Positions 3,155 through 60,004 of a stretch of 64,000 bases of DNA are shown one piece after another. The notes beneath the pieces were generated by a model. The model ran no database searches. It worked only from the letters and a program-made list of their open reading frames with translations, and was not told the origin of the DNA. Location: contig CBDCJH010000002.1 in assembly GCA_965217775.1 (NCBI GenBank), positions 3,840,001-3,904,000 of the forward strand, in the 5' to 3' direction. Position 1 is the first letter of the stretch. Each line of letters opens with the position of its first letter. Source of the DNA: Acidobacteriota bacterium (GTDB lineage: Bacteria > Acidobacteriota > UBA6911 > RPQK01 > JAJDTT01). Position numbers and translations under genes: made by a program.

Positions 3155-3208
3155 CAGCCTGTGGTAAAGGTCGTCACGGCATTCGACTGTCCCTGCATCC
3201 GGCGGGCT
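3155..3208 (-). mobile_element. Degenerate partial copy (one end) of the 158-bp MITE
   Basis: CAGCCTGTGGTAAAGGTCGTCACGGCATTCGACTGTCCCTGCATCC matches the element right end, directly after TTGA containing the MFS stop codon. Confidence 0.85.
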
Positions 3209-3245
3209 GTAGTGGGTAGCCGGATTTGTGACGGAGAGAGGTGCT

Positions 3246-3842
3246 ATGAAGAGCGTGGCCGAGCGGATCATGGAGTACGCCGAGGCCTCGCCCGAGGCCT
3301 CGCCGATCTGCCCGAGCGCTCTGCTTCATCTCGGCAAGCGCGGGGCGGTAAATCAGGCTCTGTCGCGCTTGCCTCGCTCCGGGCGACTCTTGCGGATCTG
3401 CCAAGGCGTCTACATGCGCCCGATCGAGACCCGGTTCGGGCGCTGTGCACCGAGCGTCGACAAGTCGCTCCAGTCGCTTTCGGAACTCTGGGGCGAGACC
3501 ATCGTTCCGAACGGAGGCGGCGCGGCCAACTGGCTTGGCCTGACGACCCAGAATCCGGTCCGCTCGGTCTATCTCACTTCCGGCCGCAGTCGGCGATTGC
3601 TCTTCGGCAAGCACCCCGTGGAGCTACGGCATGCGCCGCCCTGGCAGCTGGCGGCCCCACGTCGGATGGCGGGAGTAGTCATCCGCGCCTTGGCATGGCT
3701 TGGCCCCCATGAGGTCGAAGATGGCCTCGACGTTGTCCTGCCCAGCCTCACTCAGGAAGATCTCGACGAGCTTGCAGCCGCGCGAGCCGTCATGCCCCGG
3801 TGGATGGCGGAGCCGCTGAGCAAACGTCTCGCGCATGGGTGA
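3246..3842 (+). CDS. AbiEi-like antitoxin (DUF6088-type) of a type IV TA system
   Basis: wHTH-like N-terminus (VNQALSRL..RICQGVY), AANWLGLTTQNP, YLTSG motif; overlaps the AbiEii-like gene. Confidence 0.85.
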   Translation: MKSVAERIMEYAEASPEASPICPSALLHLGKRGAVNQALSRLPRSGRLLRICQGVYMRPIETRFGRCAPSVDKSLQSLSELWGETIVPNGGGAANWLGLTTQNPVRSVYLTSGRSRRLLFGKHPVELRHAPPWQLAAPRRMAGVVIRALAWLGPHEVEDGLDVVLPSLTQEDLDELAAARAVMPRWMAEPLSKRLAHG

Positions 3843-4566
3843 GACACAGTTTCAGCATCTCTCGGTCGAAGAGCGCCGCCTCGCCCTGCGCAAGGCCCAG
3901 GCCGAAAGCCCGCACCCGGCGTTCCTGCTCGAGAAGGACATCTGGGTTGTTGCCACCCTGAACGTCCTGTTCGAAGCTCCGTTCGGACGGCATCTGGTGT
4001 TCAACAGTCCGTGGTGAAAGTCGCGCGAGCACCGAGACCGGTCCTGCGCCCGCCGGACAAGGCACGATTCGGGAGCATACCGGGAGTATGTGAGCGAATC
4101 GCAACGCTGTCCGCCGGGATGCAGGGACGGTCGAATGCCGTGACGACTTTTGCCACGGGCTGTCAAGGACGGCACATCGCTGACCAAGGTGTGGGGGGCG
4201 ATTCGGCGGTTCTCCGAAGACATCGACATCACGTACGACATCCGCAGTTTCGCCCCGGATCTGGTCGCCGGCGTCGGCGACGAGGCGCTGCCGCCGACGC
4301 GCAGTCAGGAGAGGCGCTGGACCCGGGCGATCCGTCCCCGTCTCGCCGAATGGGTCCGTGAACGGGCGGGACCGCTGGTCGAGGAAGAACTCGCCCGCGC
4401 CGGGTTCGCGGCGCGGATACGGGCGGAGGCCGAGCGGCTCTACATTCGGTACAAGCCGCTGTTCGAGGTACGCGGCATCGTGCGGCCGGAGGTGCAAGTG
4501 GAAAGGAGAAGGAGGCTGGGAGGACAGGCCCATCTGACCCTACTCAGGGATCGAAATACCGAGTGA
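3835..4566 (+). pseudogene. AbiEii/AbiGii nucleotidyltransferase toxin, MITE-interrupted and 3'-truncated
   Basis: LEKDIWV; LVFK[insertion]DGTSLTK; IRRFSEDIDI; homology appears to end at RPEVQVE near 4500. Confidence 0.88.
4005..4162 (+). mobile_element. 158-bp MITE, full copy 1
   Basis: TIRs CAGTCCGTGGTGAAAGTC / GACTTTTGCCACGGGCTG; TCAA duplicated at 4001-4004 and 4163-4166. Confidence 0.93.
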
Positions 4567-5586
4567 GGCTGCCAGATCAACCAACTGGCACCATAGCGTA
4601 TCCGGGATCGGAATTCCCTCCCGCAGCCGGAGGACCCTGGCCTGGAGTTCGGGATCGCCGGGGATCAGAACTTCCTCGAAACCTGCGGCCGGAGGGACAG
4701 CTTTGATCCGTTTACGGAGCCGGTCGGCCCTATTCCCATAATCGGAAAACGGCTGAAACAGGTCGGCTTTGACGACCATCATGGCCGCGCCGGAATGACT
4801 GAAATAGAGACCCCCACGATTGGCCTGGGCAAATTGGGCCGATCCAGTGAAGATTCGGCCCAGCCATTCGGCCGCCACCGCCAACGCGTACCCCTTGTGC
4901 TCCCCAAAGGGCAATTGCCCCCCTCCTTCCAAGAGGTCATCCACATTGTTGGTGGGATTCCCCTCTTTATCGACGATCCAACCGTCGGGGACTTCTTGCC
5001 TGGTCCGCTGGGCGTTGACGATTTTGACTCCTGACGAGGCAGCAGTGGCGAAATCGAACAGCATTCGGGGCTCCCTCCCGGCGGGGAGACCCATGGCCAA
5101 AGGGTTGGTTCCCAGTACGGCCTCGCGACCTCCATGAGGCACCACTCTTGGCCTTTTTTCGCCGAATCCACCCCCCCAAACCATCGCAATCATTCCTTCA
5201 GCGGCAGCCGCCTCCGCGTACTCCCCCACGCGACCGATATGGTGGCTTTCCACTAAACCGACCACAGACACGTCGTGCTTTGCCGCCTTGGCAATGGCTT
5301 TCTCGATGGCGAATTTCGCCACCACCTGTCCAAAGGTCCAATTGCCCCTGACCAAGGCACTGGTGCTCGTTTCCCTCACGATCTCAGGCCGGGCTGCCGG
5401 AACCAACTCTCCCGCTTGTATGGCAGCGACGTAACCCGGCAGTTGCCAGACCCCATGCGTGTCGACGCCGCTCAGGTTGGCTGAAACCAGATGTTTCGCC
5501 ACTACGGCGGCGTTGGCCTCACCGGCTTTGACCGTCACCAGCATGTCTTTCACCAGTTGCTTCAGTTCGTCAGCGCTCTTTCTCAT
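4540..5586 (-). CDS. Ldh_2 family oxidoreductase (malate/L-lactate/ureidoglycolate dehydrogenase-like)
   Basis: GVDTHG, SHHIGR, LGTNP, DFATA and HKGY motifs. Confidence 0.92.
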   Translation of the reverse strand: MRKSADELKQLVKDMLVTVKAGEANAAVVAKHLVSANLSGVDTHGVWQLPGYVAAIQAGELVPAARPEIVRETSTSALVRGNWTFGQVVAKFAIEKAIAKAAKHDVSVVGLVESHHIGRVGEYAEAAAAEGMIAMVWGGGFGEKRPRVVPHGGREAVLGTNPLAMGLPAGREPRMLFDFATAASSGVKIVNAQRTRQEVPDGWIVDKEGNPTNNVDDLLEGGGQLPFGEHKGYALAVAAEWLGRIFTGSAQFAQANRGGLYFSHSGAAMMVVKADLFQPFSDYGNRADRLRKRIKAVPPAAGFEEVLIPGDPELQARVLRLREGIPIPDTLWCQLVDLAASLGISIPE

Positions 5587-5789
5587 TCTTTTGCGTCTCC
5601 ACGATTATCAACAGTACAATTCCGGGCAGGATCCGGCCAGCCTGAAAGCAAGTCGGAACGTGAGCAGAAAACCATTGCCGCACCAGTAGAACCCCCTGGA
5701 TTCAGGCAGGGCAAGCCGGCCTCCGGACTTCGCCTCCCATCAGGGATTGAGGCTTCGGGGCACGCTGATATTTGAGGAGAAGGACGGCC

Positions 5790-7412: not shown

Positions 7413-7447
7413 CCACGGCTGGAGTGCGGTAAGGAGTTTTCCCAATT

Positions 7448-15114: not shown

Positions 15115-15272
15115 CAGTCCGTGGTGAAAGTCCCGCGAGCACCGAGACCGTTCCTGCGCCCGCCGGACAAGGCGCGATTCGGGAGCATACCGGGAGTATG
15201 TGACCGAGTCGCAACGCAGTCCGCCGGGATGCAGGGACGGTCGAATGCCGTGACGACTTTTGCCACGGACTG
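15115..15272 (+). mobile_element. 158-bp MITE, full copy 2
   Basis: Complete TIRs; flanks CTAG / CTAT (imperfect); abuts the stop codon of the convergent CRTAC1 gene. Confidence 0.92.
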
Positions 15273-17030
15273 CTATGGCTTCCACGGTACTCCGGAGCCT
15301 TCTTGGAGGGTGACGAGCCGGTCAGCTTCCACCCCTTCCCAGATCTCGCTGCTGCCGCTGGGCCAGTGGACGATGACTGCCTTGACCTCCTGGTCCCGGC
15401 CCAAGCCAAAGTGCACCCGATGGTCGTTGGCGTTCAAATAGCTGCCGTCGGTATGCGCGCGACGCCATAACGTTCTCTTACCCTGGCGCTGCACTCCCAC
15501 CCGGGCTCCTGCCCCGTAGCGGTTGCTTTGCACCCCCTCCAGTTGAACCTGCAGCCAGTGATGCCGCGACCCGATCTGATTCAACAGCAACCGCACCGGT
15601 CCGTTGTTGTTGCTGATCAGAATGTCCACGTCACCGTCGTTGTCAATGTCGCCAAAGGCGGCTCCCCGGCTCACTTCCGACAGTTGCAGGGCCGCTCCCG
15701 CCTCGGCAGTCGTTTCTCGATAGTTCCCTTCCCCGTCGTTATGGAACAGTTGGTTGATTTGATCGTAGGCATAATCGGCCGGTTCGGCCAGCCGCGTCAT
15801 TCGCACCGCACCATTGGCCATGAACAAATCCAACTGGCCGTCATTGTCGTAGTCGAACCACTGGGTGCCGAAACCGGTGTAATTATGAACCCGGGTCAAT
15901 CCAAAACGACTGGTCTGGTCAGAAAAACCGCCGGCGCCATCGTTCAGATAGAGGGTGTGGGTCTCTTCCGTCAGATGAGTCATGAAGAGGTCTTCGCTGC
16001 CGTCGTTGTTGAAATCGGCGGCCGTGACCCCCATGCTGGCCTCGGCATTGCCATCGACGTTGAACGCTGTCCCTGAGAACAACCCCGCCTCTTCAAAGCT
16101 TCCGTTTCCCCGGTTGAGCCAGAGTCGATTGGGAGTCTTGTCATTGGCAACGTAGATATCCGTCCACCCGTCAACATTGAAATCCGCACAAACGACGCCC
16201 AATCCATTACCAAACGCAGCCGCCAGCCCCGCCTGCTCTGTCACGTCGACGAATCGGCGCCCACCCTCGTTGCGAAAGAACCGGTCGGGCAATGGGGAAT
16301 AAACAGTGGGAAAACAGTAATCCCTGGCGCCGGCGGTCCTGCAAACCTGGTTCCCCGTTACGGTGAAGCCAACGTAGTTGGTCAGGAACAAATCAAGGTC
16401 GCCGTCGCGATCGTAGTCCAGAAAGGCAGCGCTGGTGGTCCAGCGGGAATCCTCGGCTCCCATTCCCTCCATCGGGGTGAAGGTCGCGTCTCCGTTGTTG
16501 CGATACAAAAGATTGGGGCCGTAGTTGGTCAGGTAAAGGTCAAGATCTCCATCGTTGTCGTAGTCCCCAACCGCAGCCCCCATCCCGTAGCTGACCGAGT
16601 CGACTCCAGTCTCGGTGGTCACCTCGCGAAAACTCAGACTTCCGCCAGGGATCAGTTCGTTTCGATAGAACCGGTGTCCCGGCCTCCACCCAGGGTCTGG
16701 AACAAACTGAGACTGGGAGGGACTCTTGCCCGGTTCCAGCATCGTGCCTTGTACCAGATAGACATCCAGGTCGCCGTCGCCATCGTAGTCCAACAGGGCG
16801 GCTCCTGCGCCCACGATTTCAGGCAGGTAAAACTTGCCGCCGGCCCCGTTGAAGTGTTTGAAATCCAGCCCCACCTGGGAAGCCACTTCCGAGAAAAGCG
16901 GAGTTGGTATCGACGGGTCTTGCGCCCCAAGAGACGGCCAAGCAGAGGCTCCCCAAAGCAGGGTGACCAGCAGCCGGCCAGCGGGCCGTGAGCAAGCGCC
17001 CCGGGCCGGAAAGCCCGCCATCTCTCTCAT
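15273..17030 (-). CDS. CRTAC1-family FG-GAP/ASPIC-UnbV secreted protein (paralog A)
   Basis: DYDGDGDLD repeats, UnbV domain; near-identical to 35614..37374. Confidence 0.93.
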   Translation of the reverse strand: MREMAGFPARGACSRPAGRLLVTLLWGASAWPSLGAQDPSIPTPLFSEVASQVGLDFKHFNGAGGKFYLPEIVGAGAALLDYDGDGDLDVYLVQGTMLEPGKSPSQSQFVPDPGWRPGHRFYRNELIPGGSLSFREVTTETGVDSVSYGMGAAVGDYDNDGDLDLYLTNYGPNLLYRNNGDATFTPMEGMGAEDSRWTTSAAFLDYDRDGDLDLFLTNYVGFTVTGNQVCRTAGARDYCFPTVYSPLPDRFFRNEGGRRFVDVTEQAGLAAAFGNGLGVVCADFNVDGWTDIYVANDKTPNRLWLNRGNGSFEEAGLFSGTAFNVDGNAEASMGVTAADFNNDGSEDLFMTHLTEETHTLYLNDGAGGFSDQTSRFGLTRVHNYTGFGTQWFDYDNDGQLDLFMANGAVRMTRLAEPADYAYDQINQLFHNDGEGNYRETTAEAGAALQLSEVSRGAAFGDIDNDGDVDILISNNNGPVRLLLNQIGSRHHWLQVQLEGVQSNRYGAGARVGVQRQGKRTLWRRAHTDGSYLNANDHRVHFGLGRDQEVKAVIVHWPSGSSEIWEGVEADRLVTLQEGSGVPWKP

Positions 17031-17299
17031 GGCCGTTTGCCTGCTTGCTGCAACTGCTGCAGGAACCTCTCCAGGTCAACTGCCAATTCACCCTTCCCCA
17101 CCGAAAGCGCCTTTTCTCGGGCCTGGGTGGCAGATTCAACGGCTTTATCCAGGTCACCCAGGCGAGCATAGCTGTGGGCCAACAGGTACAGGTACACGGG
17201 AGTTCTCTCATCCTCTACGCTTAGAGTCTTCAGGAAATGGGGGACGGCTTCCGCATCCTTCCCCTGTTTCTGAAGCAGGAGACCCAACTGAAAATGGGC
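15273..17299 (-). repeat. ~2.0-kb inverted duplication, left arm
   Basis: Reverse complement of 35345..37374 (TPR 3' end plus whole CRTAC1 gene). Confidence 0.9.
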
Positions 17300-18436
17300 T
17301 GTCCGGTAATCAGGCTGGTTCTCGATCGCCTGCCGAAAATGGTGCTTGGCACCCTTTAGACGCTCTTGCTGGGCCAAAACCACCCCCAGAAGGTAGTGGG
17401 ACTCGGCGTAAAAAGGATCGATTTCCAAGGCCTCTCGAAAGGCTTCCGCAGCTTCCCGGTTTCTACCCTGAAGTCGGCGGAGTAATCCCAGGTTGTGGCG
17501 AATTTCGTGAATATTCGGATCAAGCTTGAGAGCCAATTGACAGTGGTGCTCGGCTTGGTCCAACCGTTTCAAAAGCAGCTGGGCCAGGCACAGATTGGCG
17601 TGAGCCCGCGCGTACTTCGGATCTTCCTTCAGAGCCCGTTGATATTCAACGATGGCCAGTTCGACCCGACCCTCCTCTTGAAGCCGAAGACCCTCCTTGA
17701 AGTAATATTCTGCGTAGGATCGCAGGGCTGCCACCGTCTTGAGCAGAGGATCATCCAACTGCGGACTTCTCCCCCGATTTTGTTGAAAGCGCCGTATGTT
17801 TTCTTGATATTTATCCAGCATTCCCAGTTGTCGACAGGCTGTTGCCAAAGCGTAATAGGCCGCCGCGAAACCCGGGGACAATTTCAAGGCTCTGCGGTAG
17901 CTTTGAATTGCGGCTTGCCATTGACCCCTGGAGGACTGAATCCGACCCATTCCGTAGTGCGCTTGCGAACAGTCGGGATGTTGCTTTAGCACTTGCTCGT
18001 AGATTGTTTTTGCTTCCTCCTGATTGTGGGTCGCAAGAAGAAGTTCGGCCAATCGGACACGGGCGGGAAGATAGTCCGGGTCAACCGTGGTCGCCTTGCG
18101 CAATATGCTGATAGCCTCCCTGGTCTTCCCCTCGGCTCCGCGCACGACGCCCAGGTAGTATGGCCAACGAAAAGTTCCTGATTGCAGCAAGTCGCTTCTT
18201 TGATAAAAAACTGCTGCCAGCTCGAATTGGTCGAAGGCATGGAAGGTCATTGCCAAGCGACCGTTGGCTTCCACATCGTTTGGAAATTCCAACACCTTGG
18301 CATAGGCTTGCTGCAATTTGGGCTCGAGAATCTCCAATTGCCGGGGCAGGAGTTGAGGAATGGGTGGAAGATCCTGGGCCCAAAGGTCTGAGGAAACCAG
18401 GAGAAATAACACGACCGGTGCGGCCCAACGGCCCAT
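17027..18436 (-). CDS. Secreted tetratricopeptide repeat protein
   Basis: Signal peptide (MGRWAAPVVLFLLVSSDLWAQ), many TPR repeats; ATGA-coupled to CRTAC1. Confidence 0.9.
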   Translation of the reverse strand: MGRWAAPVVLFLLVSSDLWAQDLPPIPQLLPRQLEILEPKLQQAYAKVLEFPNDVEANGRLAMTFHAFDQFELAAVFYQRSDLLQSGTFRWPYYLGVVRGAEGKTREAISILRKATTVDPDYLPARVRLAELLLATHNQEEAKTIYEQVLKQHPDCSQAHYGMGRIQSSRGQWQAAIQSYRRALKLSPGFAAAYYALATACRQLGMLDKYQENIRRFQQNRGRSPQLDDPLLKTVAALRSYAEYYFKEGLRLQEEGRVELAIVEYQRALKEDPKYARAHANLCLAQLLLKRLDQAEHHCQLALKLDPNIHEIRHNLGLLRRLQGRNREAAEAFREALEIDPFYAESHYLLGVVLAQQERLKGAKHHFRQAIENQPDYRTAHFQLGLLLQKQGKDAEAVPHFLKTLSVEDERTPVYLYLLAHSYARLGDLDKAVESATQAREKALSVGKGELAVDLERFLQQLQQAGKRP

Positions 18437-29855: not shown

Positions 29856-30013
29856 CAGCCCGTGGCAAAAGTCGCCACGGCATCCGACCGTCCCTGCATC
29901 CCGGCGGACTGCGTTGCGATTCGATCACATACTCCCGGTATGCTCCCGAATCGCGCCTTGTCCGGCGGGCGCAGGAACGGTCTCGGTGCTCGCGGGACTT
30001 TCACCACGGACTG
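29856..30013 (-). mobile_element. 158-bp MITE, full copy 3
   Basis: Complete TIRs; CTAA duplicated at 29852-29855 and 30014-30017; between convergent genes. Confidence 0.93.
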
Positions 30014-34207: not shown

Positions 34208-35617
34208 ATGCTGCCGCTTTGGACCTTGAGTTTGGCTTTCATTGCGGTCGCAACTCCGGAATTGCCTCCACCGCCCCAGTTGGCCGAACGGTTGCTGGCC
34301 GCTTTCGAGCCCCGCGATCGCCAACGGCTGCTTGAAACCTACAGAGAAGCTCTGGCAAATCCGACGGATGGCGAACTCAATGGCCGGCTGGCAATGCTTC
34401 TGCACGGTTTTGGACAATATGAACTCGCATCCACATTTTACCGGCGCGTTGGGTCCATCGAGCCGTCCAATTTTCGCTGGCCATATTATCTAGGGGTGGC
34501 GATGACCGCGATCGGCCGAGAGGCGGAAGCGATCCCTGCTCTTCGGAGGGCCGTCGCATTGGACCCGGACTATCTTCCAGTTCAGCTAAGACTTGCCAAA
34601 CTGCATCGGACGGTGGGCGACTGGGATGAGAGCAGAAAGATTTATCGGAAGGTGGTTCGGCAGCGTCCCGATTGTGCCCGTGCCCATTACGGACTGGGCC
34701 GGGTTCAGTTTGCTCGAGGCGAGACTCAGGCGGCCTTGAAGAGTTATCAGACCGCTTCCCGGTTGGCGCCCGATTTTGGGGCCGCCCATTATGGGCTCGG
34801 CACTGTGTACCGCAGCCTGGGAGAAAAAGAGAAGGCTCGCCGGCATCTACTCCTTTTTGAACGGACTCATGGGAATCCGCCTCCCTTGGCGGACCCTCTG
34901 TTGGATTCGCTCCGCCAGCTTCAATCAAAGGCGGAATACCATTACTTGCGAGGGCTGGGATTTCAACGTAGAGGGCAAATTTCTGAAGCGCTTGGCGAAT
35001 TTGAGCGGGCCTTGAAAGAAGACCCCCGGCATGCGGGGGCACACGCCAACCTGTTCTTCAGCTTTCTCACCCTGGGAGACTTCGTCAAAGCAGAAGAACA
35101 TTATCAAGCGGCGCACAGACTCGATCCCCGGCTTCACGAAATCCACCACAATCTGGGTATTCTCCGAACGCTTCAGAAGCGTGATCGGGAAGCTGAAGAA
35201 GCTTTCCGGCAAGCTCTGGAACTCAATCCTTTTCGGGCCGAGTCACATTTCCTTTTGGGTACCATTCTGGCAAATGGCGGTCAGGTGAGAGAGGCGGAAA
35301 AACGCTTCCGCCTGGCGATCGAGAACCGGTCGCAATTCATGGATGCCCATTTTCAGTTGGGTCTCCTGCTTCAGAAACAGGGGAGGGATGCGGAAGCCGT
35401 CCCCCATTTCCTGAAGACTCTAACCGTAGAGAATGAGAGCACTCCCGTGTACCTGTACCTGTTGGCCCACAGCTATGCTCGCCTGGGTGACCTGGAGAAA
35501 GCCGTTGAATCCGCCACCCAGGCCCGAGACAAGGCGCTTTCGGTGGGGAAGGGTGAATTGGCAGTTGACCTGGAGAGGTTCCTGCAGCAGTTGCACCAAG
35601 CAGGCAAACGGCCATGA
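34208..35617 (+). CDS. Secreted tetratricopeptide repeat protein
   Basis: TPR repeats; paralog of 17027..18436 with near-identical last ~90 aa; ATGA-coupled to CRTAC1. Confidence 0.9.
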   Translation: MLPLWTLSLAFIAVATPELPPPPQLAERLLAAFEPRDRQRLLETYREALANPTDGELNGRLAMLLHGFGQYELASTFYRRVGSIEPSNFRWPYYLGVAMTAIGREAEAIPALRRAVALDPDYLPVQLRLAKLHRTVGDWDESRKIYRKVVRQRPDCARAHYGLGRVQFARGETQAALKSYQTASRLAPDFGAAHYGLGTVYRSLGEKEKARRHLLLFERTHGNPPPLADPLLDSLRQLQSKAEYHYLRGLGFQRRGQISEALGEFERALKEDPRHAGAHANLFFSFLTLGDFVKAEEHYQAAHRLDPRLHEIHHNLGILRTLQKRDREAEEAFRQALELNPFRAESHFLLGTILANGGQVREAEKRFRLAIENRSQFMDAHFQLGLLLQKQGRDAEAVPHFLKTLTVENESTPVYLYLLAHSYARLGDLEKAVESATQARDKALSVGKGELAVDLERFLQQLHQAGKRP

Positions 35618-37374
35618 GAGAGATGGCGGGCTTTCCGGCCCGGGGCGCTTGCCCACGGCCCGCTGGCCGACTGCTGGTCACCCTGCTTTGGGGAGCCTCT
35701 GCCTGGCCGTCTCTTGGGGCTCAAGACCCGTCCACACCAACTCCCCTGTTCTCGGAAGTGGCCTCCCGGGTGGGGCTGGATTTCAAACATTTCAACGGAG
35801 CCGGCGGAAATTTTTACATCCCTGAAATCGTGGGCTCAGGAGCCGCCCTGTTGGACTACGACGGCGACGGCGACCTGGATGTCTATCTGGTACAAGGCAC
35901 GATGCTGGAACCGGGCAAGAGTCCCTCCCAGTCCTGGTTTGCTCCAGACCCTGGGTGGAGGCCGGGGCACCGGTTGTATCGAAACGAGCTGATCCCCGGG
36001 GGAAGTCTCAAGTTTCGGGAGGTCACCGCGGAAGCTGGGGTCGACTCGGTCAGCTACGGGATGGGGGTGGCGGTAGGAGATTACGACAATGATGGAGATC
36101 TTGACCTTTACCTGACCAACTACGGCCCCAATCTGTTGTATCGCAACAACGGGGACGCGACCTTCACCCCAATGCAGGGAATGGGAGCCGAGGATTCCCG
36201 CTGGACCACCAGTGCTGCCTTTCTGGATTATGACCGCGATGGTGACCTCGACTTGTTCGTGACGAATTACGGAAATTTCACTGTCAAAGGAAACAACCCC
36301 TGCCACAATAAGATGGGTCTCCGGGATTATTGCGGTCCCAGTGGCTATCGACCCATCCCGGATCGTCTCTTCCGGAACGAGAGGGGCCGGCAATTTGTCG
36401 ACGTGACAGAGGATGCCGGACTGGGGGCCGCCTTTGGAACCGGGTTGGGAGTCATTTGTGCCGATTTCAACGGTGACGAGTGGACGGATATCTACGTAGC
36501 CAATGACAGAACTCCCAATCAGCTCTGGCTCAACCGGGGAAACGGAAGCTTTGAAGAGGCGGGGTTGTTCTCAGGGACAGCGTTCAACGTCGATGGCAAT
36601 GCCGAAGCCAGCATGGGGGTCACGGCCGCCGATTTCAACAACGACGGCAGCGAAGACCTCTTCATGACTCATCTGACGGAAGAGACCCACACCCTCTACC
36701 TGAACGATGGCGCCGGCGGTTTTTCTGACCAGACCAGTCGTTTTGGATTGACCCGGGTTGATAACTACACCGGTTTCGGCACCCAGTGGTTCGACTACGA
36801 CAATGACGGCCAGTTGGATTTGTTCATGGCCAATGGTGCGGTGCGAATGACGCGGCTGGCCGAACCGGCCGATTATGCTTACGATCAAATCAACCAACTG
36901 TTCCACAACGACGGGGAAGGGAACTATCGAGAAACGACTGCCGAGGCGGGAGCGGCCCTGCAACTGTCGGAAGTGAGCCGGGGAGCCGCCTTTGGCGACA
37001 TTGACAACGACGGTGACGTGGACATTCTGGTCAGCAACAACAACGGACCGGTGCGGTTGCTGTTGAATCAGATCGGGTCGCGACACCACTGGCTGCAGGT
37101 TCAACTGGAGGGGGTGCAAAGCAATCGCTACGGGGTAGGAGCCCGGGTGGGAGTGCAGCGCCAGGGTAAGAGAACGTTATGGCGTCGCGCGCATACCGAC
37201 GGCAGCTATTTGAACGCCAACGACCATCGGGTGCACTTTGGCTTGGGCCGGGACCAGGAGGTCAAGGCAGTCATCGTCCACTGGCCCAGCGGCAGCAGCG
37301 AGAGCTGGGAAGGGGTGGAAGCTGACCGGCTCGTCACCCTCCAAGAAGGCTCCGGAATACCGTGGAAGCCGTAG
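35345..37374 (+). repeat. ~2.0-kb inverted duplication, right arm
   Basis: Matches reverse complement of 15273..17299 with one extra codon. Confidence 0.9.
35614..37374 (+). CDS. CRTAC1-family FG-GAP/ASPIC-UnbV secreted protein (paralog B)
   Basis: DYDGDGDLD repeats, UnbV domain. Confidence 0.93.
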   Translation: MREMAGFPARGACPRPAGRLLVTLLWGASAWPSLGAQDPSTPTPLFSEVASRVGLDFKHFNGAGGNFYIPEIVGSGAALLDYDGDGDLDVYLVQGTMLEPGKSPSQSWFAPDPGWRPGHRLYRNELIPGGSLKFREVTAEAGVDSVSYGMGVAVGDYDNDGDLDLYLTNYGPNLLYRNNGDATFTPMQGMGAEDSRWTTSAAFLDYDRDGDLDLFVTNYGNFTVKGNNPCHNKMGLRDYCGPSGYRPIPDRLFRNERGRQFVDVTEDAGLGAAFGTGLGVICADFNGDEWTDIYVANDRTPNQLWLNRGNGSFEEAGLFSGTAFNVDGNAEASMGVTAADFNNDGSEDLFMTHLTEETHTLYLNDGAGGFSDQTSRFGLTRVDNYTGFGTQWFDYDNDGQLDLFMANGAVRMTRLAEPADYAYDQINQLFHNDGEGNYRETTAEAGAALQLSEVSRGAAFGDIDNDGDVDILVSNNNGPVRLLLNQIGSRHHWLQVQLEGVQSNRYGVGARVGVQRQGKRTLWRRAHTDGSYLNANDHRVHFGLGRDQEVKAVIVHWPSGSSESWEGVEADRLVTLQEGSGIPWKP

Positions 37375-37514
37375 CGGACCAGGATTCCCGAAAAGCGACG
37401 TTGGAACCCCCAGTCAGCTTTCAAAAAATCTGGAAATAGGGAGGAACTATTGGTGACGATAGGAGTTCTCGTGCAGAGATCCAAAAAAACCATTGACGCT
37501 CGAAGGAGGTTCTC

Positions 37515-38273: not shown

Positions 38274-38307
38274 CAGCCCGTGGCAAAAGTCGTCACGGCA
38301 TTCGACC
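38274..38307 (-). mobile_element. Partial copy (34-bp end) of the 158-bp MITE
   Basis: CAGCCCGTGGCAAAAGTCGTCACGGCATTCGACC directly after CTAA containing the SDR stop codon. Confidence 0.88.
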
Positions 38308-41139: not shown

Positions 41140-41812
41140 ATGATGAATCGACTCTTTTGCGCCTTTCTGCTGCTGATTGGCTTGGTAGCAGTCCGTGGTG
41201 AAAGTCCCGCGAGCACCGAGACCGTTCCTGCGCCCGCCGGACAAGGCGCGATTCGGGTGCATACCGGGAGTATGTGCCCGAATCGCAACGCAGTCCGCCG
41301 GGATGCAGGGACGGTCGAATGCCGTGGCGACTTTTGCCACGGGCTGGTAGGGTCCATGACAGCCGAGACATCCCGGCAGCCAGGACGCGAGATCGTCGCA
41401 CCCGCGGGGGATCGGCCCGCACGAGTATTGGGACAAGCTCGAACGGAGGCGGAATATGAAGCGTTCGTGGCTCTCAAATCGGCGCTCGGACCGCTGGGAA
41501 AGGCCGAATCGGCGCAAGATTTCCTGGAAAGGTTCCCTCTGAGCGGGCTCTCGCCGCTTGCCCACCAAGCGGACAGGGCATCCGGCAGTTACGCGCGCGG
41601 CGGCCCTGGACGGATTTACGTCGTCGCTGGCCCGTCAGCATCTCGAAAAGATCTACAGGCACCTCCACCCTCCCCTACCGGATGAGGACCAGGAGCGATA
41701 TGAGCTGCGGATCTCGCACGGCTTGAACGGACTCGTCGCTCAAGAGAGGGAATACTACCGATTACGGCAAGGACTTCCCCGAACGGCCAGGAGCGGCGGC
41801 TCGGAGAAGTGA
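41140..41812 (+). pseudogene. Degenerate paralog of the 27018 secreted TPR-like protein with an in-frame MITE and an internal deletion/frameshift
   Basis: AEYEAF..KAESAQDFLERFPLSGLSPLAHQ aligns with AEFDAW..KAELATRFLESFPNSGLTAFAHH; C-terminal homology (RAAALD..RQHLEKIY) lies in another frame. Confidence 0.65.
41189..41346 (+). mobile_element. 158-bp MITE, full copy 4 (in-frame in an ORF)
   Basis: GTAG duplicated at 41185-41188 and 41347-41350; reading frame stays open. Confidence 0.93.
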
Positions 41813-43551: not shown

Positions 43552-43709
43552 CAGCCCGTGGCAAAAGTCATCACGGCATTCGACCGTCCCTGCATCCCGG
43601 CGGACGGCGTTGCGATTCGGGCACATACTCCCGGTATGCACCCGAATCGCGCCTTGTCCGGCGGGCGCAGGAACGGTCTCGGTGCTCGCGGGACTTTCAC
43701 CACGGACTG
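43552..43709 (-). mobile_element. 158-bp MITE, full copy 5
   Basis: CTAG duplicated at 43548-43551 and 43710-43713; 30 nt upstream of the TonB receptor start. Confidence 0.93.
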
Positions 43710-43739: not shown

Positions 43740-46700
43740 ATGTCGATCAGAAGCCTGATCCCTTCTTCCTCTCATCCTCGCTTATGGCGCTCTCTGCGCC
43801 GACTGGGGATCGCGGCGGCGATTCTGTTGGCCGGCACGGTCCTGCTTTCCGCCCAGACCGACACCGGCACCATTCGCGGCTACGTCTACGATGAGACCCG
43901 GGCCGTTCTCCCCGGCGTCACCGTTACCGCCACTTACCAAGGCCGCGGCGTGACCCGGGAGACCCTCACCTCGGAGATCGGCGAATACGTCCTGAGCCGG
44001 GTCGATCCCGGCCTCTACACGCTCCGCTTCGAGTTGCCCGGGTTCGCTCCCTACGTGGCCAAGGACCTGGAGGTGCTGGTGGGACAGACCCAGTCCTTTT
44101 CCCCCGAGATACCGGTGGCCGCCGAGGCCGTTGAAATCACGGCGGAAGCGACGCGGGTCAGCATCGCCCACGACAAGACCCAGCAGTCCAACCATATCGA
44201 CTCTGCCAGCATCGAGGATCTGCCCGTCAACCGCCGCGACTACCTGGACTTGGCGCTGCTGACTCCCGGCGTCGTCGACTCGAACTATGTGGCGGATGAC
44301 CGCGACTACCGCATCGCCCCGACCCCCGCGTCCGGACTCGGTATCGGCGGCGGCGGCGGGCGCGGCAACACCTTCACCATCGATGGATTGGACAACAACT
44401 ACGCCACCGGAAGCGTCCGCTCCTCCATCAGTCAGGACGCGGTGCAGGAGTTTCAGATCAACCGCAATTCGTTTTCCGCGGAACTGGGCGGAGCGCCCGG
44501 GGGAGCCATCAACATCGTCACCAAGGGAGGGACCAACGAGTTTCGCGGGTCCATCTTCGGAGTGCTCCGCAACCGGCGCTTCCAGACCCGCAACCACTTC
44601 GATCCGGCCGACTCGGCGTATACAAGGAGCCAGAGTGGGGGGTCTTTTGGCGGCCCCATCCTGCGAGACAGGACATTCTTCTACACCGCCTACGAACGCC
44701 TCGACCGTCACGAATCCTCGTTCGTTCCGCTGCTCCGGGACAGATCGTTCCTGTACGAGCCGACGCCCTCGCAAAAGGCCTTGGCCGGGGCGCTCGGGGA
44801 CGCGGTTCCGCCCCAGTTGGCCCCGCTGGTCCAACAACTTACGGCGGCCTTGATTCCGGGAAACTTCCCCCACGTCGTCCATCTGTTCGAGAGCAACAGC
44901 GGGGTGTTCCCGTTCTCGGAAGAGCGGCAGCAAGTCATAGGGCGCATCGACCATGCGGTGGGCTCCGGGCACAATCTCTTCTTTCGAGGAAACTGGACAG
45001 GACAGAACAGCCAGAACACCAGCTTCGGTTCGCTGGTGGCCCGCAGCCGGGGACGCAACAACAATGTGAACGATTTCGCCCTGGCGGTCGGAGACACCCT
45101 GGTCGTGGGTCCGGAATGGATCAGCGAGACCTGGTTGGGACTGTCGTACCACGACTTCGGGGTCTTCCCGACCGACCCCCACGGACCCTCCATCGACATC
45201 AACGGATTCGGCCATTTTGGACGAGACTTCATCCTGCCGACTCGAAGCCTCCAACGCAGGGGACAGGCCCGGCAGAATTTCACTTACGTCTCCGGGGGGC
45301 ACACGTTGAAGTTCGGTGCGGACGTCAACCTGGGATACAGCAGAGTTCGGTCCGAGACCTTCTTCAGCGGGCGATTCATCTTCGGAGCGGCCGTCCCCCT
45401 TTCAGCTCTGATCGACGCCAGGGGCGGGCCCGGCGCATCCCAATTCGTCAAGCTGTTGCTGACGGGAGCGGGGGCTCCCCACCTGGCGGCGGCAGTGGAC
45501 CACCCCATCTCCTCACTTCAGGCCTACGCGCTGGGCCTCCCCATCGTTTACCAACAGGGCTTCGGCGATCCTTTCTGGCGCGGAGGGGCGAGTACCTACG
45601 GGTTCTTCGTAGAAGACTCCTGGCGGATCCGCCCGAAATTCCTGCTGACTCTGGGACTGCGCCACGAGCTCTTCCGCAAGTCGAATTTTCCCAGAGACAA
45701 CAACAACTTCGGGCCACGCATGGGATTCGCCTGGAGCCCCGATACCAAGACCGTGGTGCGGGGCGGCTACGGTATTTTCCATGCCCGGATCGACGGCCAG
45801 ATCACGTACATTCGGGACCTGCTCTCAGACGAAGTCCAGCAGATCTTTCAGGTCTTCATCCCCTTGACCGGCATCCCGGGAATCAACAGCGCGCTGACCG
45901 GGCAGACGCTCACGTCGGCGGAGATCTACCAGTCGGTGTTGGCCCGGGGCATTCTGGGCAAACGGCAAATCAGGCCTGAGGACTTGGCCATCCACGGCCT
46001 GGTTCCGACTCCCGGACTGCCGTTGCGCGTCGCGTTCACCGTGGCCGACGATATGGTGAACCCCTACGCCCAACAGGCAAGCCTCGAGATCCAAAGAAAC
46101 GTCGGCGGATTTGCCCTCTCGGCCGGGTACAACTTCAACCGCGGCGTCCATATCAGTCCGTGGTGAAAGTCTCGCGAGCACCGAGACCGTTCCTGCGCCC
46201 GCCGGACAAGGCGCGATGAGGGAGCATACCGGGAGTATGTGACCGAATCGCAACGCAGTCCGCCGGGATGCAGGGACGGTCGAATGCCGCGACGACTTTT
46301 GCCACGGGCTGATATCGTCCGCCCGCTCGACGTCAACATCTACCGCGCCGGAACCAACGCCCAAGGACGACCCATCGTCGGTTTTCACAGGCCGGAGATC
46401 CTGCAGGACAACGTCTATGGCAGTTGGTCCAATTCCTTCTATCACGCCCTGATTCTGCAATTGGAGAAGCGCTTTTCGGACGGCGTCGTGATCTCGGCAC
46501 ACCACACCTGGAGCAAGGCGATGGACGAGATCACCGACTACAACTCCTCGTTCCAACCTCACCTGCAGTGGGACGCCGCGGCCGAAACGGCCCTCTCGTC
46601 CTACCATCGCGGTCACCGCTTCGTCTTGCGCACCCTGGCGAAGCTGCCCTGGAAGGCCGGCCGGGGGAAAGGGCTCGGACACAACCTGTTGGGCGACCTC

Positions 46701-47090
46701 ACCCTTTCCGGGATTGTCACGGCACGCTCGTTTGCCCCCTTCAACCTCAATGCCGGCTTCGACAACGTGGGCGACCGCCACACCGACACGCACCGTCCCT
46801 GGGGCCTGGGCCGCAACGTGGGCATCGGACCCAACCTCTTCAGCGTCGACCTGCGCCTGAAGCGCCGAATTTCGCTCGGAGAGGACAAGAGCCTGGACAT
46901 CGTCGCCGAAGGGTTCAACATCCTCAACCGCACCAACTTCAAGCACGTCAACGGCACCGTCGGTACGCTCACCCTGGAGGAGCTCCCGTCCTCGTACACG
47001 GGACGCCGGGGGCCGGTGACGGAACCGTTCTCGTACACCTCGGCATTCGCACCGAGGCAGTTCCAGTTTTCTCTCCGTCTCAATTTCTGA
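43740..47090 (+). pseudogene. Oar-type TonB-dependent receptor interrupted by a MITE (single in-frame TGA)
   Basis: ORFs 43287..46166 and 46239..47090 share a frame; removing the insertion restores GVHIVRPLD; ends in LRLNF. Confidence 0.88.
46154..46311 (+). mobile_element. 158-bp MITE, full copy 6
   Basis: ATAT duplicated at 46150-46153 and 46312-46315. Confidence 0.93.
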
Positions 47091-54414: not shown

Positions 54415-54828
54415 CTACACGTCCACCCGGACGTGCTTCATGGCCTCGTAGGCCGGAGACGGCTTGCCCTGTACGTGGAGGAAGGGGTATCGGTAGTCCT
54501 CCTCTCCCACCCAGCGGGACTCGCCGGTCATGAAAATCACGGTGTAGGCGCGCCGGGAGCGCGGGCTCCGGTTGGGCTCGCTCCGGTGATAGGTCAGGCA
54601 ATGGTGGAACCCAACGCTTCCTTTGCTCAGCTCCACCGGAATCTCATCCCCCAGACGGCTCAGAGCCTCTTGGGTCAGCTTCCAGGTATTCCCGGGCACG
54701 TCCGTCCGCTCGTGATCGAGCAGGCCCAACTTGTGGCTTCCGGGGATCACGGTGAGGCAACCGTTCTCGCGGGTCGCATCCTCCAACGCGATCCAGGCCG
54801 TCAGCATCCGGTAGGGCTGGAAACTCCA
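54415..54828 (-). pseudogene. 5'-truncated duplicate of the phytanoyl-CoA dioxygenase gene
   Basis: Near-identical to 56221..56634 at a constant 1806-bp offset; lacks the HxD motif. Confidence 0.88.
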
Positions 54829-54913: not shown

Positions 54914-56083
54914 TCATGCGTTCTGAAGCAACATCGCCAGCTCGGAGACGCTGATCGCCTCAACGCCTTCGGTGACCGGGAAGCGCTCGTCGCCGGAATG
55001 CGCGACGAACGCATGGGCCGGCCTCAGGTCCGCGCGGGCGTTGTGGAAGCCGCGGTCCAGTCTCGGGGCGCGGCCCCGCTTGATCTCTATCGCCCACAGT
55101 TCGCCGCTCGGCAACTGAAGCGCGAGATCGACCTCGGCGCCGGCGGAAGTGCGGTAAAAACTGGCCGTCGTCCGTTCCGGGGCGGCCGCGAGCAGATTCT
55201 CTATCACATATCCTTCCCAACTGGCGCCGGCCACAGGATGGCCGGCCAGCGCATTGAAATCGCCAATGCCGAGCAGAGCGTGCAGCAGGCCGCTGTCGCG
55301 TATGTAGATCTTCGGCGATTTCACAAGCCTTTTCCCGACATTGGCGCGCAAAGGAGCCAGGCGCCGCACCAGCAGCAAATCGGTCAAGAGTCCGATATAG
55401 CGATTCACGGTTTGCACGCTCACACCCAATGACGAAGCCAGCCGGGAGGCATTCAACAGGCCTCCCTGGCTGTGGGCCAGCATGATCCAAAGGCGTTCCA
55501 GCGTTTCCGCGGGGAGGCGGGGCCCGAACAAGGCGACGTCGCGCTCCAGGTAAGTCCGGATAAAGTCCTTGCGAAGAAGAAAGCTACGCCTTCCGTCAAC
55601 GGCCAGAAAGCTGTCCGGGAAGCCGCCCCGCACCCAGAGCCGGGTGGGCGTGTCACTGCCGCCCGCCACCTCGAGGAGGTGGAACGGCTGCATGTCAATA
55701 TAGGCGATCCGGCCGGCAAGGCTCTCGCTGGACTGGCGCAACAGATCCATCGACGCGGAGCCGAGGATCAGGAATCGTCCGGTCCGTTTTCCTCGCCGCC
55801 GGCCGCTGTCGATGACCCCTCGAAGATCCTGAAACAGTCCGGGAACTCTGTGGATTTCATCGAGAATCACGAGGCGGTTTTCGTAATGGCTCAGGAACAG
55901 CGCCGGGTCGCTCAGCTTTTGCCGATCGGTTCGGTCTTCGAGGTCGAGATATAAGGCTCCGCGCTCTTCGCCGATATCCAGCGCGAGCGTGGTCTTGCCA
56001 GCTTGGCGCGGGCCGATAATGGCCACCGCTGCCTGGTAACCAAGCGCCTCAAGAACGCGGGGCTTGATATGCCGCTCTATCAT
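54914..56083 (-). CDS. AAA+ ATPase (AAA_14) with DUF4143 and C-terminal PD-(D/E)xK-like domain
   Basis: GPRQAGKTT, ILDEIH, LILGS, LAGR, RGGFP, KSPKIYIRDSG, EVDL..AIEIK. Confidence 0.93.
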   Translation of the reverse strand: MIERHIKPRVLEALGYQAAVAIIGPRQAGKTTLALDIGEERGALYLDLEDRTDRQKLSDPALFLSHYENRLVILDEIHRVPGLFQDLRGVIDSGRRRGKRTGRFLILGSASMDLLRQSSESLAGRIAYIDMQPFHLLEVAGGSDTPTRLWVRGGFPDSFLAVDGRRSFLLRKDFIRTYLERDVALFGPRLPAETLERLWIMLAHSQGGLLNASRLASSLGVSVQTVNRYIGLLTDLLLVRRLAPLRANVGKRLVKSPKIYIRDSGLLHALLGIGDFNALAGHPVAGASWEGYVIENLLAAAPERTTASFYRTSAGAEVDLALQLPSGELWAIEIKRGRAPRLDRGFHNARADLRPAHAFVAHSGDERFPVTEGVEAISVSELAMLLQNA

Positions 56084-56220: not shown

Positions 56221-56982
56221 TTACCCGTCCACCTGGACGTGCTTCATGGCCTCGTAGGCCGGAGATGGCTTCCCCTGAACGTGCAGGAAGGGATACCGGT
56301 AGTCCTCCTCCCCCACCCAGCGGGATTCGCCGGTCATGAAGATCACGGTGTAGGCGCGCCGGGAGCGCGGGCTCCGGTTGAGCTCGCTCCGGTGATAGGT
56401 CAGGCAATGGTGGAATCCCACGCTTCCTTTGCTCAGCTCCACCGGAATCTCATCCCCCAGACGGCTCAGAGCCTCTTCGGTCAGCTTCCAGGTATTCCCG
56501 GGCACGTCCGTCTGCTCGTGATCGAGCAGGCCCAACTTGTGGCTTCCGGGGATCACGGTGAGGCAACCGTTCTCGCGGGTCGCATCCTCCAACGCGATCC
56601 AGGCCGTCAGCATCCGGTAGGGCTGGAAACTCCAGTAGTACATGTCCTGGTGGGGCGGGACCACGCCCCCGTCCAGCGCCGGCTTGGCAAAGAGCCCGTC
56701 GGCGTAGATGTCCAGGTCGGGGCCGAGGATCCGCTCGACGACCGCTGCCAACTTGGGATGCGTGGCCACGGACCGAAAGGCGGACTCGCGGTGGAGCAGC
56801 CCGAAGGCGTTCCGGAGCGCGGAAGGATTGGTCGGCTCCCACTTGAGATCGCCCTCGGGGTAAGGAAGCTCCCTCCTTTCCAGGACATCCACCCGGGCCA
56901 TGAGTTCGTCCATCTCCGCAGGAGTGAAGACGTTGTCCACAGTGACGTAACCGTTCTCGTCAAAGAAGCTCTTGAGGCTCAT
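56221..56982 (-). CDS. Phytanoyl-CoA dioxygenase (PhyH) family protein
   Basis: FAKP, PPHQD, WIALEDATRENGCL..PGSH, HRS..N.S..RR; GGAG RBS. Confidence 0.93.
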   Translation of the reverse strand: MSLKSFFDENGYVTVDNVFTPAEMDELMARVDVLERRELPYPEGDLKWEPTNPSALRNAFGLLHRESAFRSVATHPKLAAVVERILGPDLDIYADGLFAKPALDGGVVPPHQDMYYWSFQPYRMLTAWIALEDATRENGCLTVIPGSHKLGLLDHEQTDVPGNTWKLTEEALSRLGDEIPVELSKGSVGFHHCLTYHRSELNRSPRSRRAYTVIFMTGESRWVGEEDYRYPFLHVQGKPSPAYEAMKHVQVDG

Positions 56983-57892: not shown

Positions 57893-58057
57893 TGTTCAGT
57901 TGCGTCCGAAACTCCCCGGCGTCTCGGACCTGGGTTCGGAGCGCGAAACTCGGCGACGGGAACCGTATCCTTGTATGCTCCCGATTATATCGAGAAAGTT
58001 CGTTTTCGGGTGCCGGGCTCGAATCCTTGGCGCTTCATGAAAAGGGAGGTCGCAAGT

Positions 58058-59563
58058 ATGACTCTTCACAGGATGTTGGTTGTTCTCATCGGAATCGGCC
58101 TGTCGCTGCAGCCAGGCGCCGGGGCCGGCAAGGAGACGGTCCTTTTCCCGTTCGACGACTACAGCGTTCCCTTCAGCAAGGGCTTGGTGCTCGAACTGAT
58201 CCCGGGCCGGAAGGGCGCGGTCAACAAGGGCACCGGAGCCGATCCCCTGCACCCGAGCAAACCGGTCGTCCCTCCGGGCATGCCGGGAGACCCGGACCAC
58301 CCGCGGGTCTACTACTACGGCACCGTCCTGAAAATCGATGGCGAGTACCGCATGTGGTACACCGGTTGGGACAAGGACAGGAAGAGGCAGGTCCTCTATG
58401 CCGTCTCCCGGGACGGGGTCCGCTGGGACAAGCCGGACCTGGGACTCGTCGAGTACAACGGGAACCGGCAGAACAACCTGGTGCTGTCCGACGGCAAGGG
58501 GCCCATGAAGGGAGCCTTCTGCCTGGTCCTCCACGAGCCGGACGATCCGGACCCCGGACGGCGCTTCAAGATGGTCCGGGAAGAGCATCCGCGAGCCATC
58601 ATGGCAGCCTACAGTCCCGACGGGCTGCACTGGACCGACTCCTCCAACAACCCCATCATCAAGAGCAGCGGCCTGGAGACGGGCGGCCTGATTCGGTTCA
58701 ACGGCTTCTACTATTTGAACGGTCAGGGGGGACCGATCCCCCACCCCGTCCCCAAGGCCCGGAACCGAATCATGGTCACTTTCGTCTCCCACGACTTCGA
58801 CCATTGGAGCGATGCGGCCCATCTCAGCTTCCGGAGGGATCCCATCCCACCGCGTCCTCTCAACGATTTCGAGATCCATCGCGGCGAACAGGTCCACATG
58901 GGGGCCAGCCTCTGGAACCGGGGGAACGTGATCCTCGGCTTCTACGGCCAATACCACAACCAGACCAACGACCGACGCTATTCGACCTGCGACCTGGGCC
59001 TGGTGGTGAGCCACGACGCCATCCATTTCAAGGAGCCGATCCCCGACTTCAAGATCCTGCCCTCCTACGAGGAACCGGACGGGGCGGAACCGCGGCTGAT
59101 CCAGGGGCAGGGGTTCGAGAACATCGGCGACCGGACCTTCTTCTGGTACAGCATCTGGGTCGCGTTCGACCCGGAGGGGCCCACCGGTGTCCGTCTGGCC
59201 ACCTGGGGCCGGGACCGGCTGGGATATTTCGCTGCGGCGCCCCGGACGCAGGGCGCCCATTTCTTCTCTACGCCAATCGAATTGGATTCCCCGCAGACGG
59301 AGATCTACGTCAACGCTTCGGGGTTGTCCGAGACGAGCCAACTCCGGGTCGAGGTCCTGGACGGCCGGCTCCAGCCAATGCCCGGTTATTCGGGAGACGC
59401 TTCGATTCCGCTCCGGAAACCGGGACTGCGGCAACGGGTGGCCTGGAGCGGCAAGGACCAACTGGCAGGAGCGGACGGGCCAATCCGCGTGCGCGTGAAC
59501 TGGGAAGGGATTTATCCGGAAGACGCTCGCCTTTACGCCGTCTATGTGGTGGAGAGCGATTAG
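58058..59563 (+). CDS. Secreted five-bladed beta-propeller glycosidase-like protein
   Basis: Signal peptide, YRMWY, YAVSRDGVRWDKPDLG, YSPDGLHW, DRLGYF; GGAGG RBS. Confidence 0.78.
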   Translation: MTLHRMLVVLIGIGLSLQPGAGAGKETVLFPFDDYSVPFSKGLVLELIPGRKGAVNKGTGADPLHPSKPVVPPGMPGDPDHPRVYYYGTVLKIDGEYRMWYTGWDKDRKRQVLYAVSRDGVRWDKPDLGLVEYNGNRQNNLVLSDGKGPMKGAFCLVLHEPDDPDPGRRFKMVREEHPRAIMAAYSPDGLHWTDSSNNPIIKSSGLETGGLIRFNGFYYLNGQGGPIPHPVPKARNRIMVTFVSHDFDHWSDAAHLSFRRDPIPPRPLNDFEIHRGEQVHMGASLWNRGNVILGFYGQYHNQTNDRRYSTCDLGLVVSHDAIHFKEPIPDFKILPSYEEPDGAEPRLIQGQGFENIGDRTFFWYSIWVAFDPEGPTGVRLATWGRDRLGYFAAAPRTQGAHFFSTPIELDSPQTEIYVNASGLSETSQLRVEVLDGRLQPMPGYSGDASIPLRKPGLRQRVAWSGKDQLAGADGPIRVRVNWEGIYPEDARLYAVYVVESD

Positions 59564-59570
59564 CGGATTC

Positions 59571-59639
59571 TTATGGGTTCCAGGGAAATCCCTCCCGCAC
59601 TACGAGATCTCTGCCCGACGGGTCCCGGGGCAAACTCAT
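59571..59639 (-). pseudogene. HicA-like toxin N-terminal remnant (22 aa)
   Basis: ATGA-coupled to the HicB-like gene; MSLPRDPSGRDLV resembles HicA starts (MxLPRDxSGxxL), then stops. Confidence 0.55.
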
Positions 59640-60004
59640 ACAGCGATGACCTTTTGGCGGGGAGAATAGCAGTCCGTGGTGAAAGTCCCGCGAGCACCGA
59701 GACCGTTCCTGCGCCCGCCGGACAAGGCGCGATTCGGGTGCATACCGGGAGTATGTGCCCGAATCGCAACGCCGTCCGCCGGGATGCAGGGACGGTCGAA
59801 TGCCGTGATGACTTTTGCCACGGGCTGATAGAGTCGAATCACTTTCGGTCGATCGCGCTTTTCAAAATGACACCGGACAGCATCCGGCATCGCGGCGTAA
59901 AGCTGCGGAAGCGTGCCTGCTTCTGTGAGAATCGAAACCCCCAATGCGCGCGCCGTGAATCCACTCTCTGGCGCCTCTTCGACGACGAATACAATTTCCT
60001 TCAT
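59636..60004 (-). CDS. HicB-like antitoxin carrying an in-frame 54-aa MITE insertion
   Basis: MKEIVFVVEEAPESGFTARALGVSILTEA..DAVRCHF..PKVIRLY[54 aa]SPRQKVIAV. Confidence 0.75.
   Translation of the reverse strand: MKEIVFVVEEAPESGFTARALGVSILTEAGTLPQLYAAMPDAVRCHFEKRDRPKVIRLYQPVAKVITAFDRPCIPADGVAIRAHTPGMHPNRALSGGRRNGLGARGTFTTDCYSPRQKVIAV
59670..59827 (+). mobile_element. 158-bp MITE, full copy 7 (in-frame in a minus-strand ORF)
   Basis: ATAG duplicated at 59666-59669 and 59828-59831. Confidence 0.93.

Follow-up and report, generated by a model that had tools for sequence, protein, structure and literature searches.

The window analyzed here comprises 64,000 nucleotides (64 kb) of an Acidobacteriota genome (contig CBDCJH010000002.1, positions 3,840,001 to 3,904,000). 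Its gene content includes TonB-type receptors, ASPIC/UnbV and GWxTD proteins, with one homologue from Bryobacterales, and it carries a 158-bp repeat that a first-pass annotation had described as a MITE (miniature inverted-repeat transposable element). The seven full copies, two right-end fragments and 18-bp imperfect terminal repeats reported there were all recovered by BLASTN with the first copy as query and from the ends as written: the full copies showed 95–96% identity (E 1e-69 or better), differed pairwise by 0–8 bases, and two of them, at 43552 and 59670, were identical in sequence. The reported density of one copy per 7 kb holds with fragments counted, and falls to one per 9 kb for full copies; the fetched loci of the closest genomes contained 1–2 copies per 20 kb.

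The most divergent copy (4005–4162, plus strand, five differences from the window majority) lies inside an AbiEii gene at target TCAA. Three copies are located between convergent genes: one between ASPIC/UnbV genes (15115–15272, plus), with the TAG stop of the minus-strand gene in its flank, one 5 bp off a stop codon (29856–30013, minus, target TTAG in element orientation), and one between genes for a pyrroloquinoline quinone (PQQ) dehydrogenase and a luciferase-like protein (41189–41346, plus, target GTAG). The latter served as example copy; its left terminal repeat (41189–41206, plus) agrees in 17 of 18 bases with the left-end majority sequence of the autonomous elements described below, and its right one (41329–41346, minus) completes the imperfect 18-bp repeat. 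Two further copies lie upstream of a TonB-type receptor gene (43552–43709, minus, target CTAG) and within it (46154–46311, plus, target ATAT), the latter contributing an in-frame stop. The last copy (59670–59827, plus, target ATAG) is identical to four copies in contigs CATOST01 (L038, L056, L069, L089) of an Acidobacteriota metagenome-assembled genome (MAG). Both fragments are on the minus strand and begin directly after a stop codon, one of 52 nt (3155–3205, element positions 107–158) behind an MFS gene and one of 34 nt (38274–38307, positions 125–158) behind an SDR gene. Read in element orientation, fragment 3155 and copy 4005 share one target sequence, and in the region 3155–4566 a DUF6088 antitoxin gene and the truncated AbiEii gene begin right after the fragment. 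The ASPIC/UnbV gene next to copy 15115 belongs to an inverted 2.4-kb paralogous block with a partial TPR gene (15272–17647 and 34997–37375, 88% identity), of which only one block bears the element at its stop codon; the element-free paralogue was unusable as an empty site, as homology ends at that stop codon.

Perfect 4-bp duplications flank six of the seven full copies, as first noted, and the seventh, at 15115, has CTAG/CTAT with one mismatch. Most of the targets are TA-centered as claimed; TCAA is not. CTAG, TTAG, CTAA and TTAA each occur only 18–19 times in the whole window versus approximately 250 for an average 4-mer, so that the preferred targets are scarce. Searches of the window with Rfam 15 gave no match at gathering threshold (best E 0.44 for one copy), a tRNA scan gave none, no sigma-70 promoter or intrinsic terminator was detected in one copy, and BLASTN searches with the element gave no full match in plasmids, E. 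coli genomes or phages. A 39-bp match (85%) to the right arm on a Rhodococcus plasmid (L001 2001–2039) had no recognizable ends and did not resolve into an element. The ends of two Aminicenantes MAG contigs (L067 10004–10057; L100 1–55) equal the first 54–55 element bases at 98–100%, which may be a sign of recent transfer or of a binning error.

Empty sites, which had been suggested as a check, were found at the protein level for two copies; at the DNA level, none of the loci fetched covered an insertion site of the window. The TonB-type receptor gene interrupted by copy 46154 (43740–47090, plus) aligns in one frame with an intact homologue of 1062 amino acids across a gap of 54 codons, with 98% identity over the first 762 residues and 212 of 218 identical residues after the gap, where the element supplies the stop. 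Likewise, intact homologues of the AbiEii-family toxin of a type IV toxin–antitoxin pair (3835–4566, plus), whose gene is cut off at approximately residue 170 of 343, align over copy 4005 with a 54-codon gap. In both genes the gap corresponds to 158 + 4 bases, the element plus its duplication, and the exact difference at two sites fixes the ends and the 4-bp duplication. Judged from these alignments, the copies are therefore true, recent insertions, the receptor gene insertion being a recent event. Of the designation "active", the recent insertion stands and a partner in the window does not: among the 57 open reading frames (ORFs) scanned, chosen from 206 of at least 90 codons, no transposase family was matched, as previously stated.

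To find such a partner, species-representative genomes were scanned with a TA-anchored end pattern, which biases the target composition and yielded a sample of at least 121 loci. By record title, roughly three-quarters of the matches listed, assigned by eye, came from Acidobacteriota and the rest from Planctomycetota, delta-proteobacteria and others. Long flanks were present for 80 loci, on which all element counts rest; they contained at least 59 short and at least 23 long elements with these ends on both sides. Among the matches listed, 22 of the 23 long elements (1437–1535 bp, 20 distinct) encode one transposase with 56–100% identity to a reference member, have CTAG as their commonest target (11 of 22) and show perfect duplications in 18 of 22; the 23rd is a short element with an IS630 inserted in it. 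The proposed search for a transposase gene bounded by the same repeats was thus answered by 22 insertion sequences (IS) of 1.44–1.54 kb, none of them in the window. The partner IS was found together with degenerate relatives in L061 and L074 and with a 271-bp relative in L032; pairs of it occur inverted around 2.7 kb (L017 4399–10017) and in tandem (L075 10004–13282).

The transposases contain the Pfam domains DUF772 and DDE_Tnp_1, and three acidic positions (D, D, E), whose roles we assign from established DDE motifs, were invariant in 13 of 13 aligned sequences. Like IS1182 and IS5 elements, the partner has a single ORF of approximately 450 codons with DUF772 and DDE domains, short terminal repeats and a 4-bp duplication. 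Unlike in these families, its transposases score under both NCBIfam cut-offs: the best model was IS1182 for all 13 (157–180 bits, cut-off 270), while IS5_4 gave 81–107 bits (cut-off 140; E. coli IS5 control 366). By these scores, the clade lies between the IS1182 and IS5 models and is filed in neither family; its nearest plasmid relatives (approximately 50% identity) are mostly labeled just "transposase". An IS701-type partner was ruled out, as the IS701 model matched none of the 13 transposases. The earlier suggestion of trans mobilization by IS5/IS1182/IS701-type enzymes therefore holds for the IS1182/IS5 group (a gene of this kind occurs in elements with these ends) and not for IS701. Published examples are ISPse1 of the IS1182 family, with 16-bp repeats and a 4-bp duplication (PMC3281130), and a 160-bp ISMac2/IS1182 MITE of Methanosarcina acetivorans (PMC3852290).

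The match between the element and the long IS elements is confined to 17–21 terminal bases, and a search with the core model described below found nothing inside any partner IS; an origin of the element by internal deletion of this IS was thus ruled out. Type II prokaryotic MITEs are described as short and non-coding, with terminal repeats shared with an IS and similarity to it at the ends only (PMC10969869). The element, which is short, multi-copy, bounded by 18-bp inverted repeats, codes no transposase and resembles the autonomous IS only terminally, agrees with them in all these features as well as in its 4-bp duplication and stable stem-loop; unlike in these MITEs, its interior has been conserved, with covariation, in several phyla and is joined to the ends of different IS families. 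With REP/REPIN sequences moved by RAYT it shares the palindromic, extragenic character and the frequent position between convergent genes, and differs from them in its DDE-type ends, duplications and DDE partner; no RAYT link was seen. The 1.44–1.54-kb IS is the likely mobilizer. Its DDE transposase, supplied in trans, would bind and cut the 18-bp repeats and insert the element at NTAN-type sites, mostly CTAG or TTAG, with 4-bp duplication; given the shared ends and targets, both of which were observed, it is highly probable that this enzyme acts on the element.

Each copy forms one end-to-end hairpin (−108 kcal/mol as RNA, z −13, reached by 0 of 200 shuffles; z −8.5 as DNA). Rod-like interiors of this core type occur in Acidobacteriota, Planctomycetota and other groups, mostly in elements of 157–161 bp; 38 of the 59 short relatives among the matches listed are of this length, with interiors ranging from 99% down to 43% identity to a window copy. 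In an alignment of 41 sequences (6 window copies and 35 distinct relatives), 26 of 41 consensus pairs showed two-sided changes. A 64-base core was evaluated in 24 of the 41 rows, leaving out 4 near-duplicates and 13 divergent ones: 91.4% of its cells were paired, versus 26–44% in slid controls, 11 of 17 pairs had changed on both sides, and the covariation score was reached by 0 of 500 shuffles, which ignore relatedness. In the example copy this core (41236–41299, plus) consists of a basal CAAGGCG / CAACGCAG internal-loop motif, a mid-stem, a tandem G-A loop and an apical 6-bp hairpin; a lone pair between two G-A loops showed covariation in 11 sequences. Predicted 2 × 2 GA/GA loops numbered 39 on the core strand and 2 on the opposite one, and the core strand folded better in 36 of 38 cases as RNA and in 35 of 38 as DNA. 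Because of the covariation, the strand-specific GA/GA loops and the better folding of the core strand, the fold is, by these models, under selection on one strand; the data fit RNA or single-stranded DNA alike. The idea that the apical loop is a CsrA site was dropped, as the loop varies and differs in ERIC (see below).

The same body was found with other ends. Among 16 further core matches examined, four lay in such elements. The interior of L041 3871–4028 is 84% identical to that of a CAG-ended member (shuffled maximum 61%), and its terminal bases equal the window end in 8 of 18 positions. In L023 11583–11740 the interior identity was 72%, and the ends matched annotated IS630 ends on two plasmids in 23 and 22 of 28 bases; the plasmid ends sit at the transposase stop codon, and the second end is present. 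The ends in L008 are similar in look to those of L023, and L047, L058 and L101 contain 168–177-bp elements that have yet another type of end, the mid-stem of some being longer and ERIC-like. Partner families were looked for and not found for the L041 and L047 end types. For IS630-type ends, the alignments show that the body has changed ends between transposase families. The two ends of an element were more alike in short elements than in the IS (on average 2.1 versus 3.0 mismatches over 18 bases, p 0.011), in keeping with one end having been copied to the other side by way of the hairpin. Short elements that differ in their ends lie nested in or next to one another in L047 (9578–10241), L058 (10004–12941) and L101 (159–778), with IS630 inside a short element in cluster loci; such clusters are likely places of end exchange. 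In L058 15915–17089, two ends of the third type surround a 372-codon ORF that by eye does not resemble a transposase; from its ORFs the unit was ruled out as an IS, and it is possibly a case of cargo capture.

The likeness of the core to ERIC (enterobacterial repetitive intergenic consensus), also termed IRU or RU-1, was noted first and then tested. ERIC comprises 127 bp with TA ends and TA duplication (PMC2759123, PMC2229807) and is listed as MITEEc1_IS630 (PMC11602168). The literature consulted (PMC11602168, PMC3184786, PMC2267715, PMC3281130, PMC3852290, PMC2229807, PMC2759123 and PMC10969869) covers type II MITEs, MITEs of IS1182 with 4-bp duplications, and ERIC, which is described there as confined to Enterobacteriaceae and Vibrionaceae. 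As reference, six E. coli K-12 regions (221 kb) with 7 ERIC copies were picked by position, the copies being identified by the consensus printed in PMC2759123 and an 18-base stretch of one copy that 386 papers name alongside ERIC. Both repeats form a single long stem-loop, lie intergenically near gene ends and have the basal CAAGGCG / CAACGCAG motif in the same order as well as a G-A loop under a near-identical apical stem; in one E. coli ERIC, 20 of 22 bases of this stem are the same as in the window core, and the remaining two make up one compensatory pair. The element thus has the central hairpin and flanking internal-loop motif of ERIC, though a covariance model from the 24 cores reached only E 0.062. 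A four-segment profile with free spacers, trained on these cores only, placed all 7 ERIC copies within the top 10 in the 221 kb, and a reciprocal ERIC-trained profile ranked all seven window copies first, 5 above all 50 null maxima and 2 level with the highest. With the apical hairpin alone, two ERICs ranked first, within the null range. The differences are equally clear: the element has 158 bp, 18-bp CAG-ended repeats and a 4-bp duplication where ERIC has approximately 127 bp, TA termini and a TA duplication, its mid-stem has 5 bases per arm versus 17, the outer arms are not alignable, and its host is not an enterobacterium. BLASTN of the element gave no match in 5426 E. coli genomes, and interior identity to ERIC was 48–54%, inside the shuffled range. 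From these comparisons, the element is not an ERIC; its core is built like one, and common ancestry of the two cores appears quite likely. On visual inspection, the RU-2/YPAL sequence in Table 1b of PMC2759123 seems to have an end of CAG type and an apical hairpin like that of the core.

Taken as a whole, the element is probably a type II MITE composed of two modules that can be told apart, ends and interior, the interior being a conserved rod-forming body with an ERIC-type core rather than an IS remnant, whose ends would have changed between transposase families. The fold would act on one strand, most likely as RNA made by read-through from a host gene. The duplication includes the stop codon of a long ORF in 12 of 32 copies with long flanks, versus 90 of 708 YTAR sites from those loci (p 0.0005), and 11 of the 32 lie between convergent genes. 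Copies at stop codons or between convergent genes may be kept because the interrupted helix influences stability or decay at the 3′ side and lowers the insertion cost, while mismatches would prevent the double-stranded DNA from becoming a perfect, unstable palindrome. Reviews report an orientation-dependent effect of Yersinia ERIC on mRNA decay by RNase E (PMC10969869, PMC2229807). This effect and the copies at stop codons make us favor an RNA-level reason for keeping the fold, a suggestion we hold tentatively, at slightly less than even confidence.

A number of results weigh against this account. The partner transposase was found neither in the window nor in the loci fetched from those genomes whose copies are closest. 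Stop-codon enrichment of the copies over the partner IS (3 of 23 long elements) was not significant (p 0.066), the gene calls behind the stop-codon and convergence counts were heuristic, no orientation bias relative to the neighboring transcript was found (8 versus 4, p 0.39; 7 versus 4), and both intragenic copies disrupt their genes. In the youngest subtype, which the window and the four CATOST01 copies share without a difference, some G-A loops are now pairs and the subtype is still spreading, so that these loops are not needed for jumping. As to ERIC, it was the best match of the covariance model, but with two of 7 copies among six matches, plausibly because its mid-stem is 12 bases longer per arm; with the core-trained profile two of 7 copies scored above all 20 null maxima and five did not; and the profile segments were picked after viewing both sequences, so that the tests were not blind.

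Two other explanations are unlikely, to a similar degree. In the first, the interior serves transposition as DNA: 158 bp (15 helical turns) or an extruded cruciform would pair the ends for a transposase of any family. Helical phasing is a feature of short transposons, on which the literature searched yielded no report. The narrow length range of the relatives, kept despite interiors down to 43% identity, is in agreement with this explanation, as are the 159–160 bp of the IS630-ended relatives and the 160 bp listed for the archaeal IS1182 MITE (PMC3852290); yet members of the 157–161-bp group have a common descent, a test of 18 length classes for periodicity was not significant (Rayleigh p approximately 0.08), and a cruciform requires folding of both strands, of which the opposite one folds worse. 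In the second, the element is an ordinary MITE specific to its lineage, which resembles ERIC through convergence of GA-rich hairpins and whose interior has no selected role beyond tolerability. The weak covariance-model score, the lack of BLASTN matches, the interior identity within the shuffled range and the loss of G-A loops from the youngest copies all accord with this explanation. It is opposed by the 20 of 22 shared apical stem bases with their compensatory pair, the equal order of the basal motif and the ranking of the window copies by the ERIC-trained profile, and it leaves one body with both IS630-type and IS1182-like ends unexplained.

Considerably less probable is that the core moves on its own, carried as RNA or single-stranded DNA by a reverse transcriptase or HUH transposase, and is merely decorated with IS ends later. 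Such enzymes recognize folds of one strand and conserved internal loops, and nested arrays of core-bearing elements exist (L047, L058). However, all strong core matches examined lay within terminal repeats or remnants of them, the insertions show DDE-type duplications and exact ends, and neither enzyme was found among the 57 of 206 window ORFs scanned. A coding palindromic element like the Rickettsia RPEs, a tolerated peptide insert of 54 codons, is the least probable of all, as both intragenic copies lie in a closed frame and stop the gene and only 21 of 38 relatives have a frame-keeping length, even though 162 bp is divisible by three, all 7 copies have the three reverse frames open, and 6 of 7 have an open forward frame.

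Apart from the element, the window contains a 413-bp direct repeat (54416–54828 and 56222–56634, 96% identity) of a PhyH gene end that flanks an AAA/DUF4143 gene (54914–56083), which by this arrangement looks like an integrated islet.

The literature searched, which was thin on subscription papers, yielded no report of this MITE family and none of a core of ERIC type joined to other ends; the supplement of PMC11602168, a census in which 99 viral MITEs are attributed to phages of Acidobacteriae UBA7540, may list the family. The "possibly undescribed" of the first annotation is thus in line with the Rfam and literature searches, and has to be qualified by the resemblance of the interior to the known ERIC repeat. 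Because the partner clade does not reach the present family cut-offs, annotation pipelines miss both the element and its partner. As a mobile element it is unremarkable; what stands out is its conserved interior, of ERIC type and with swapped ends.

MITEs are usually described as decayed insertion sequences and their interiors as leftovers, and ERIC has been known since about 1990. Here, the interior would be older than the ends, under selection for a one-strand fold and moving between transposase families, which suggests that ERIC-type cores are reusable passengers that switch carriers. ERIC may then belong, as one enterobacterial member, to a superfamily of structured, non-coding passengers that spans phyla. 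In these, a one-strand fold, composed of a basal internal-loop motif and an apical hairpin approximately one helical turn apart or less, would be read by a host or element factor, and the body would outlive IS turnover by swapping ends between unrelated DDE families (IS630, IS1182/IS5-like and at least one more), a new end being copied across the hairpin. We regard the case for this wider proposal as evenly balanced. If the tie to ERIC is true, the origin and purpose of ERIC become testable, now that there is a candidate for the partner enzyme, of which intact copies exist, together with natural variants differing in nothing but their ends or mid-stem length, and a defined motif.

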